A DNA stretch of 64,000 nt from an uncultured Gammaproteobacteria bacterium (GTDB lineage: Bacteria; Patescibacteriota; Patescibacteriia; Patescibacteriales; UBA12465). A model generated the notes under the pieces. That model had not been told where the DNA came from. It worked only from the letters and a program-made list of their open reading frames with translations, and ran no database searches. This document shows positions 53,171 to 54,559 of this stretch, one piece after another. The stretch covers positions 65,109 to 129,108 of the forward strand of contig CAYPAP010000002.1 of the NCBI GenBank assembly GCA_964408775.1, read 5' to 3'. A program made the translations under genes and the position numbers. The stretch's first letter is position 1, and every line of letters begins with the position of its first letter.

Positions 53171-54253
53171 TCAGTCATCTAGTTCTTCAATTTCGTCTTG
53201 TATTTGGGTATACATCGCCGGGTTTTTTTGGCTCAGAATATTAAAAGCAGCTAAGATAGCATTTTCATCTGGCCAGGCAGTCAAAAGAGGCACCTGAAAT
53301 GGCATTCGTAGGCTGGACCAAACATCTTCCGGGAAGTCTTTTAAACTTGCCGGACAGGCTATTACTGGCCATGAAGTCCTGGCTGCCAAAATTGGCCCCA
53401 GACCATTGCTTCTTCCAACCTTGACGATAATCACGCCTCCATCCGGGTAGGCCTGAAGTATTTCTTCGAGCTTTGCCAGAGCCTTGGCGGGAGATTTGTG
53501 AACTGATAATGCCACATCAATCATGTCTATCCCTATTTCTTTTATTTTTTCGGGATAAACGTAATTAACGTACGGAAGAGAGTCTCCAACAGAATACCCC
53601 CAAAAAACCAGAGCTTGATTTGGTATACGGAAGTTGTTAACCATTTGGCTAACTGTTCCGTATTTTTTTTCCACCTCACTCAGGTTTTCTCCTTGTCGGA
53701 AGCTTTCTTTGGAGAGCTCGGTCCAGTTTTTGGTACGCAGTCGCCAGCTGTCATTGTCAATGACATCGGCTACCAGGAGCTCTCCATCGGCCGTGAAACC
53801 GAACTCGATTTTGAAGTCTATTAAGCGCATGTTTTGTTGCGCCCAGGCTGATTCCAAGGTCAGGAAAGTCATCCTCGTTAACTTCTCAATTCTATCAAGA
53901 ATTTGGACGCTAAGGGTGTTTCTTGCCTCTTGCTCATCCGAGACATGTTTATTTAGCTTCAAAACCTCCATAATACTTGGTGCTGTTAAAACCTTCCGAG
54001 AATCAATCGGCGGGTAAAGGACAGCATTCTTTTCCCAGGAAGGAATTTTGGGGTGATAAAGTTCCCACCAATGAGCGTCTTTAGGAATAATCAGAGGATC
54101 CTCTTCTCCTTTTTTCGGATCTAGACCCTTTACCAGTTTTTCCCCAAAAATTTCCAGCTCTCCTCCTGTAGTCTTAAGGAAAAGCTCTATTTTCAGGGAA
54201 TGAAAACGGTCAGGATTATTGCTGTCAGTGCTCATGTTAGGGAAGCGCTTCAA
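53171..54253 (-). CDS. purC-purE: PAICS-like bifunctional gene, downstream part: C-terminal two-thirds of SAICAR synthetase fused to a class-II-like PurE (AIR carboxylase)
   Basis: LIDFKIEFG...LVADVIDNDSWRL (SAICAR synthetase), then a PurE fold from about 53620 downward: SVHKSP, VGRSNGLGPILAARTSWPVIACP. The ORF begins at a TTG immediately after an in-frame TAG, in the same frame as the upstream fragment. Confidence 0.8.
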   Translation of the reverse strand: MKRFPNMSTDSNNPDRFHSLKIELFLKTTGGELEIFGEKLVKGLDPKKGEEDPLIIPKDAHWWELYHPKIPSWEKNAVLYPPIDSRKVLTAPSIMEVLKLNKHVSDEQEARNTLSVQILDRIEKLTRMTFLTLESAWAQQNMRLIDFKIEFGFTADGELLVADVIDNDSWRLRTKNWTELSKESFRQGENLSEVEKKYGTVSQMVNNFRIPNQALVFWGYSVGDSLPYVNYVYPEKIKEIGIDMIDVALSVHKSPAKALAKLEEILQAYPDGGVIIVKVGRSNGLGPILAARTSWPVIACPASLKDFPEDVWSSLRMPFQVPLLTAWPDENAILAAFNILSQKNPAMYTQIQDEIEELDD

Positions 54254-54559
54254 CTAGCTTCCCACGGCATAGCGCCGAGCGATAACCTCCAGTGGTATCA
54301 TCGTACATCGTGGAGCCAGAAATTCTGTTTCACCCAGTTGTTTTTCAAAAGCAACGGGAATTCCGGCTTTTTTCAGCAGTTCAAAAACGCGACAAGTTGT
54401 ATTTGTGGCGTACTTTGCTTTAGCCTCGAACTCCTGAGTTTTGCTGGGGTCATCAAAAGCAGTGATTTTGCTTTTGCTCTCGATGACAACCATTTTCGGA
54501 TTGTCTTCATGGGACCAAATTCTTTTGGTCTTACCTTCTGCGATGAGTCGTTGTCTCAT
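54254..54559 (-). CDS. purC: PAICS-like gene, upstream part: N-terminal SAICAR synthetase fragment ending in an in-frame TAG
   Basis: MRQRLIAEGKTKRIW...KITAFDD...IPVAFEKQLGETEFLAPRCTMIPLEVIARRYAVGS*. The ATG at 54559 is preferred over the track start at 54622, which overlaps purM. TAG is at 54254-54256. Confidence 0.75.
   Translation of the reverse strand: MRQRLIAEGKTKRIWSHEDNPKMVVIESKSKITAFDDPSKTQEFEAKAKYATNTTCRVFELLKKAGIPVAFEKQLGETEFLAPRCTMIPLEVIARRYAVGS

Follow-up and report, generated by a model that had tools for sequence, protein, structure and literature searches.

How should a single in-frame stop codon be read when it stands at a conserved residue position, in a gene whose frame is open on either side of it? 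The purC-purE gene on the minus strand of the DNA analysed here (a stretch of 64,000 nucleotides, hereafter the window) raises this question; its sequence runs GTG GGA AGC TAG TTG AAG CGC TTC, with the TAG at 54256..54254. Such a codon might be a real null mutation, an error of assembly, a stop that the cell bypasses, or a codon whose meaning has changed. Our essential contention, to which we attach a probability of roughly 0.7, is that it reflects a recent and real nonsense mutation, TAT>TAG, in a gene on its way to being lost; the cells would then really carry TAG in their DNA, the product would be non-functional and selection on the gene would be relaxed. A recent nonsense mutation was also the leading interpretation in a preliminary description of this locus, which named TAT among the neighbouring codons, and relatives do read TAT or TAC at this position.

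Architecture of the interrupted gene

The whole gene (53171..54559, minus strand) extends from an ATG at 54559 to a TGA at 53173..53171 and comprises 462 codons including the TAG, which interrupts the SAICAR-synthetase domain at codon 102 without insertion or deletion. A single frame is thereby divided into two ORFs. The upstream ORF (54257..54559) starts at ATG 54559, encodes 101 aa plus the stop and ends in the conserved ..RRYAVGS motif; the downstream ORF (53171..54253) encodes 360 aa from the TTG at 54253 and holds the remainder of PurC together with the PurE domain. Gene callers begin the latter at ATG 54235, giving a protein of 354 aa (P0001). If the TAG terminates translation, the 101-aa N-terminal fragment is expected to be the sole product, and the downstream ORF is probably untranslated.

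Once the two are joined (AVGS-X-LKRFPNMSTDSNNPDR across the junction, X being the TAG position), a PAICS-like product is obtained that matches PF01259 (6.2e-40) and then the AIRC domain PF00731 (7.3e-16) in a single frame. Its SAICAR_synt match scores 137.9 bits and is continuous across the stop, while the separate halves score 75.9 and 59.8 and cover the first 95 (positions 2-95) and the last ~100 of the 233 positions in the Pfam profile. The joined product is also colinear with full-length homologs, the alignment showing no indel at the position of the stop, and more than 100 Patescibacteria fusions of about 440 aa are colinear with it at 50-60% identity. Because both the domain match and the homolog alignment are continuous across the stop, the two ORFs are one gene with one lesion, and the preliminary description was right to see a minus-strand TAG splitting SAICAR synthetase without an indel. 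The domain order is that of the PurC-PurE fusion family and the full-length ORF is interrupted by the TAG at codon 102; the window gene is a member of this family by descent, in disrupted form.

Among solved structures, the joined product is best matched by animal PAICS (4ja0, 7.6e-54; 2h31, 1.2e-51). The human sequence RRIATGSFLKRNPG (PDB 2h31) aligns with RRYAVGS-stop-LKRFPN, in agreement with the human motif ATGSFLKRNPG that had previously been quoted. In E. coli PurC the motif is AAGSLVKRLG, with Leu at the corresponding residue. The column under the TAG holds Tyr in 72, Phe in 46 and Cys in 1 of the 119 aligned homologs; of the conserved GS-[F/L]-KR residue proposed earlier, the conservation of the position and the Phe hold good, while the Leu does not apply to this family, where the residue is Tyr or Phe. 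The SAICAR synthetase domain also carries a clade-specific insertion of ~20-30 residues (residues ~190-220 of the product of 53171-54559, minus strand), common to the window and its two closest relatives and missing from other Patescibacteria fusions.

The PurE (AIR carboxylase) domain (53174..53614, minus strand) is altered by three radical substitutions, each at a near-invariant position of a motif. G322Y (53596..53594) and G353V (53503..53501) replace residues that are Gly or Ala in 117 of 117 homologs and adjoin the invariant S323 and H354 respectively, and S421F (53299..53297) replaces a residue that is Ser in 114 of 117. The motifs W-x-G-S-x-x-D, S-G-H-K and R-M-P-S are consequently not conserved in the window, while the invariant S323, D326 and H354 are retained. 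The flanking ORFs had been described as lying in the same frame and being otherwise intact; the first is correct, and the second applies to the reading frame but not to the PurE half. In the PurC half, the TAG aside, there are 4 deviations in 96 conserved columns, where the family mean is 2.0 and the close relatives P0028 and P0091 have 3 each. This half is conserved like that of its relatives and the mutation must therefore be very recent, a pattern that an error or a tolerated stop would equally show.

The ancestral codon and the fate of purCE in sister lineages

The preliminary description proposed comparing the orthologous codon in relatives, and the comparison is informative. A degenerate DNA pattern for EVIARRYAVGS?LKR, scanned across 185,579 species representatives, matched six genomes of the clade, and all six have TAT or TAC at the position of the stop. 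The nearest relative, isolate STE_17 (JAQVFY010000001.1), reads GGAAGC TAT TTGAAA where the window reads GGAAGC TAG TTGAAG. The TAT in this near-identical context, combined with the codons of the six clade genomes, points to a lesion consisting of one third-position T>G change, TAT>TAG (Tyr102 to stop). As expected of a pseudogene formed by nonsense mutation, the stop lies a single substitution from the sense codon of close relatives, here the TAT of STE_17.

The stop itself is confined to the window. There is none at the homologous position in any of the 119 aligned homologs or the six clade genomes, and no relative has a gene split at the position of the TAG. Among 241 million metagenome records scanned for RR[YF]AVGS-(TAA/TAG/TGA/TGG)-LKR there was no further PurC with a stop at the position; the matches were a true PurC with TGG (Trp; L009) and a chance match (L008), which was considered as a case of a recurrent stop and rejected, not being PurC.

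What is shared with relatives is damage to the gene. Four lineages, including the window, share the locus order purA-leuS-purM-purC(E)-purL-purN, and these four have four different lesions of purCE: the TAG in the window, a TAA in STE_17, a deletion of PurE in L012 and an excision in L019/L020. In STE_17 a single TAA replaces Gln315 (NNFRLPN-stop-ALVIWRGS) at the PurC/PurE boundary (L010:6958-6960, L011:1380-1382), an invariant residue, being Gln in 117 of 117 full-length homologs. This TAA is present in both the NCBI MAG and the Logan assembly; the PurE portion 3' of it keeps all of its motifs and the same frame as PurC, and the locus is annotated as two genes. In L012 (L012:1009-1902) the whole PurE domain has been deleted in frame (..LPN now adjoining IEELDK), with the deletion beginning at the very codon where STE_17 has TAA. 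Both STE_17 and L012 still have an intact PurC domain.

In L019/L020 purCE is entirely missing (L019:4860-5063, L020:4678-4849). The C-terminus of purM, ..NAVIIHSDYGVYSL and its stop, leads directly into the terminator hairpin pair AGCCATCGAAAATTCGGTGGCTTTTTTAATTAAAAAA.. and from there to the end of purL; this is the same hairpin pair that comes after purC(E) in the other three lineages. In the window, back-to-back terminator hairpins follow purCE at 53080..53136, as located by a terminator scan and by DNA alignment with L010, L012 and L019, and the terminator following purCE itself is at 53136..53115. These hairpins are conserved in the clade and mark the boundaries of purCE and purL deletions, in the relatives and in the window.

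Different lesions in three sister lineages (L010/L011, L012 and L019/L020) point to ongoing loss of the gene, with the window copy a plain pseudogene or a null allele, and independent damage of this kind in related lineages is the signature of relaxed selection. Degraded orthologs had been anticipated as the sign of a plain pseudogene; degradation was indeed found, in the unexpected form of one different lesion in each of the three lineages. The two closest proteins, P0028 (73%) and P0091 (76%), had been taken as simply PurE-less, a view that was overturned by reading their loci. More distant Patescibacteria have an intact fusion adjoining purB, an arrangement that leaves room for either a gain or a loss of purL.

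The pur genes adjoining purCE in the window are intact (purM, purN and purA). The purM-purCE operon begins with purM (54597..55778, minus strand), a long AIR synthetase of the Bacteroidetes type that matches PDB 3mdo (6.7e-53) and 3kiz (5.6e-50), both of them structural-genomics entries for a 'putative PurM'. It has a partial match to TIGR00878 below the cut-off and no Pfam match; with structural matches at 1e-50 to 1e-53 in the absence of a Pfam match, the window PurM is evidently a divergent long subtype that the Pfam models miss. The idea that it is truncated (393 aa, compared with 447 aa in STE_17) was rejected, since the gap corresponds to a 54-aa tandem duplication in the relative. In STE_17 purM (L010:4612-5955) the segment ..RRDxPSFYKGSYNLRTIHGLEMSRAILSPTRQWAIVIKKIIVALKNANxLHMLHGI.. 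is present twice, and this duplication could be real or an assembly artefact at 4.6x coverage.

Convergent with purCE lies an intact gene for a purN-like formyltransferase (52363..53049, plus strand), with a match to PF00551, a partial match to TIGR00639 and 77% identity to its STE_17 ortholog. The spacer between the two genes (53050..53170) measures 121 bp, and it is here that sister lineages hold purL (about 1280 aa). Thus purL occupies its clade-typical place in the three sister lineages and is missing from the window, where a tblastn search with STE_17 PurL found no remnant. A candidate for a relocated purL (P0124/L017; JGI 3300035208 Ga0376279_0000048), with 69% identity to STE_17 PurL, is found on a 123-kb JGI/NCBI contig. 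Its composition is compatible, with a GC content of 0.330 and a tetranucleotide correlation of 0.905, a measure on which relatives also score 0.90, and it has no shared or conflicting single-copy genes; P0124 may belong to the window's organism. With purM, purN and purA intact and purL perhaps relocated, it would be premature to call the entire pathway dead. The region of the pur cluster, leuS and purA (52001-60000) has a GC content of 0.36-0.40, compared with 0.28-0.35 in the rest of the window.

We propose the following course of events for the window gene. Selection on purCE would have been relaxed across this small clade, and the PurE half would have taken its radical substitutions before the TAG arose. 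A change of TAT to TAG (Tyr102 to stop) would then have inactivated the purC-purE fusion: translation of the purM-purCE mRNA would stop after 101 residues, right after the conserved Gly-Ser of ..AVGS-Y-LKR.., and neither a functional SAICAR synthetase nor a PurE domain would be produced. The TAG would be tolerated, as the fixed or majority allele, because selection on purCE is relaxed in the clade, and in the sister lineages the same gene would have been independently truncated, trimmed or deleted.

Alternative readings of the stop

The alternative that best survives is that the TAG is a base-call, consensus or assembly error, or a minority strain allele picked by the consensus, in which case the cells would carry TAT and the gene would be intact. 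The TAG is one substitution from the ancestral TAT and stands in a PurC half without other damage, the source is a metagenome-assembled genome, and the contig name of STE_17, which likewise has a single stop, gives a coverage of only 4.6x; all of this is what an error could look like. However, the downstream ORF (P0001) is found on three contigs, one of 159 kb assembled with MEGAHIT (k141; ENA ERZ27252296) and two records of 247,623 bp (NCBI and JGI), and the ENA contig shows 100% identity to the window over the 7,065 bases retrieved from it, the TAG among them, with the proviso that the assemblies may share reads. Nor are there other split or broken genes among the 56 long ORFs of the 64-kb window, as befits an assembly of high quality; four overlapping pairs of ORFs in different frames were suspected of being frameshifts and rejected, each being two complete and unrelated genes. 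An error specific to one assembler appears unlikely, given the agreement of at least two assemblies and the lack of frameshifts in the window.

Against an error it also counts that a set of 5.8 billion clustered proteins has no intact 462-aa version, the full-length match next in rank being 57% identical. A degenerate back-translated pattern for ARRYAVGS?LKRFPNM, intended for a sense-codon allele of the same species, had zero matches in the JGI metagenome collection, missing the window's own contig too. A real lesion would, moreover, come as no surprise, purCE having been damaged independently in three sister lineages. We regard an error or minority allele as unlikely.

A second possibility is that the TAG is real and bypassed, enough enzyme being made either through near-cognate read-through that inserts Tyr or Gln, or through re-initiation at the UAG/UUG to give a two-piece PurC. 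The preliminary description gave both routes similar weight to a mutation, and the locus has features that invite them, since the downstream frame is open for 360 codons, a TTG directly abuts the TAG, and a 7-bp GGGAAGC/GCUUCCC hairpin has the TAG in its loop. If tRNA-Tyr decoded UAG as a near-cognate codon, the residue of the wild type would be restored. Yet the stop, which a programmed signal would be expected to share with relatives, is absent from the 119 homologs and the six clade genomes, and the 241 million metagenome records yielded only TGG. The hairpin can be explained by the Gly-Ser and Arg-Phe codons around the stop, a 6-bp version being possible in the TAT-bearing relative, and the 141-nt RNA around the stop does not fold significantly well (z = -1.5; 13 of 200 shuffles fold as well).

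Re-initiation fares no better. Forty real starts in the window have AT-rich leaders and almost no Shine-Dalgarno motif (for example those at 1707, 14390, 30857 and 55967), whereas TTG 54253 and ATG 54235 are preceded by GC-rich coding sequence. Promoter-like sites on the minus strand lie upstream of purM (55896..55798), with one weaker match within purM, and there is none between purM and the TAG. The purC start (AAAGGA-N6-ATG, 54559) is itself among the few in the window with a Shine-Dalgarno-like element. A two-piece enzyme would moreover have its break directly after the conserved Gly-Ser of the active-site motif, with loss of the conserved aromatic residue, and a bypass of either kind would rescue a protein whose PurE half is damaged already. 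In short, nothing indicates programmed read-through or a two-piece enzyme, and a functional bypass strikes us as very doubtful. At least as doubtful is the weaker version in which the gene is merely throttled, with near-cognate decoding by tRNA-Tyr or tRNA-Gln, or re-initiation at the UAG/UUG, keeping a low level of PurC(-PurE) activity.

Finally, UAG might be recoded in the source organism, through a suppressor tRNA or pyrrolysine, to give a full-length protein. The 56 long ORFs of the window end in TAA (37), TAG (10, the purC one included) and TGA (9), and the nine other TAG codons terminate their ORFs at the expected ends; the seven listed in the preliminary description (9455, 23225, 41770, 42885, 47148, 52233 and 59984) are all real, and two more lie on the minus strand. 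The purA gene in the window shares its end point with its ortholog. Four codons beyond the TAG that ends ORF 41793..42887, and in the same frame, a GT2 glycosyltransferase gene (42900..43601) starts with its ATG (the junction is at 42885-42902), and these two look like chance in-frame neighbours, the second with a normal N-terminus, rather than a read-through fusion. The reassignments of stop codons known from bacteria all concern UGA, and pseudogenes with stops in frame are documented to give false signals of recoding (PMC8629427). The preliminary description had already judged genome-wide recoding unlikely. The stop does sit at a conserved sense position, and the search covered a minor part of the genome, but genome-wide or Pyl-type recoding is very unlikely, because TAG terminates elsewhere, no other gene in the window is split or has an in-frame TAG, the only tRNAs in its 64 kb are Leu-CAA and Gln-CTG, with no CUA anticodon and no pyrrolysine or suppressor-tRNA signal, the site calls for Tyr or Phe and not a special residue, and reassignments are known only for UGA.

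Probable gene loss and comparison with known systems

A nonsense mutation during gene loss is an ordinary mechanism. Only about 32% of CPR genomes encode the complete pathway of de novo purine synthesis (PMC11608272); since about a third have it in full, its repeated loss in CPR is to be expected. What the locus offers is a snapshot of such loss in parallel, with four close Patescibacteria lineages in which purC-purE has been disabled in four ways. These lineages retain purM, purN and purA, and three of them retain purL, which raises the question of whether the upstream half of the purine pathway is kept for another purpose or whether the pathway is in the midst of being lost. The locus also carries a caution, in that a lone in-frame stop at a conserved residue in a MAG resembles recoding, and it is the sister lineages that reveal an ordinary null mutation.

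The likeness to programmed read-through and UAG recoding, as seen with pyrrolysine, suppressor tRNAs and recoded phages, is superficial and goes no further than a TAG in frame where a sense codon is conserved. In the window, by contrast, the stop is not conserved, there is no suppressor tRNA in view, TAG terminates other ORFs in the vicinity and no stimulatory structure reaches significance. With animal PAICS (2h31, 4ja0) the window gene has in common the order of domains, SAICAR synthetase followed by AIR carboxylase, and the ..GS[F/Y]LKR.. motif; it is however a Patescibacteria homolog of modest identity, set apart by its clade-specific PurC insertion, its TAG and its altered PurE motifs. 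The closest analogues are the unitary pseudogenes that arise from a single nonsense mutation during reductive evolution in host-dependent bacteria. There, as here, a single substitution interrupts a frame that is otherwise open, in a biosynthetic pathway of patchy distribution across the phylum, and the sister lineages display the stages of truncation, domain deletion and full excision. The difference is that the pur genes adjoining purCE are intact in the window, and this would place it at an early stage of the process and not among decayed operons.
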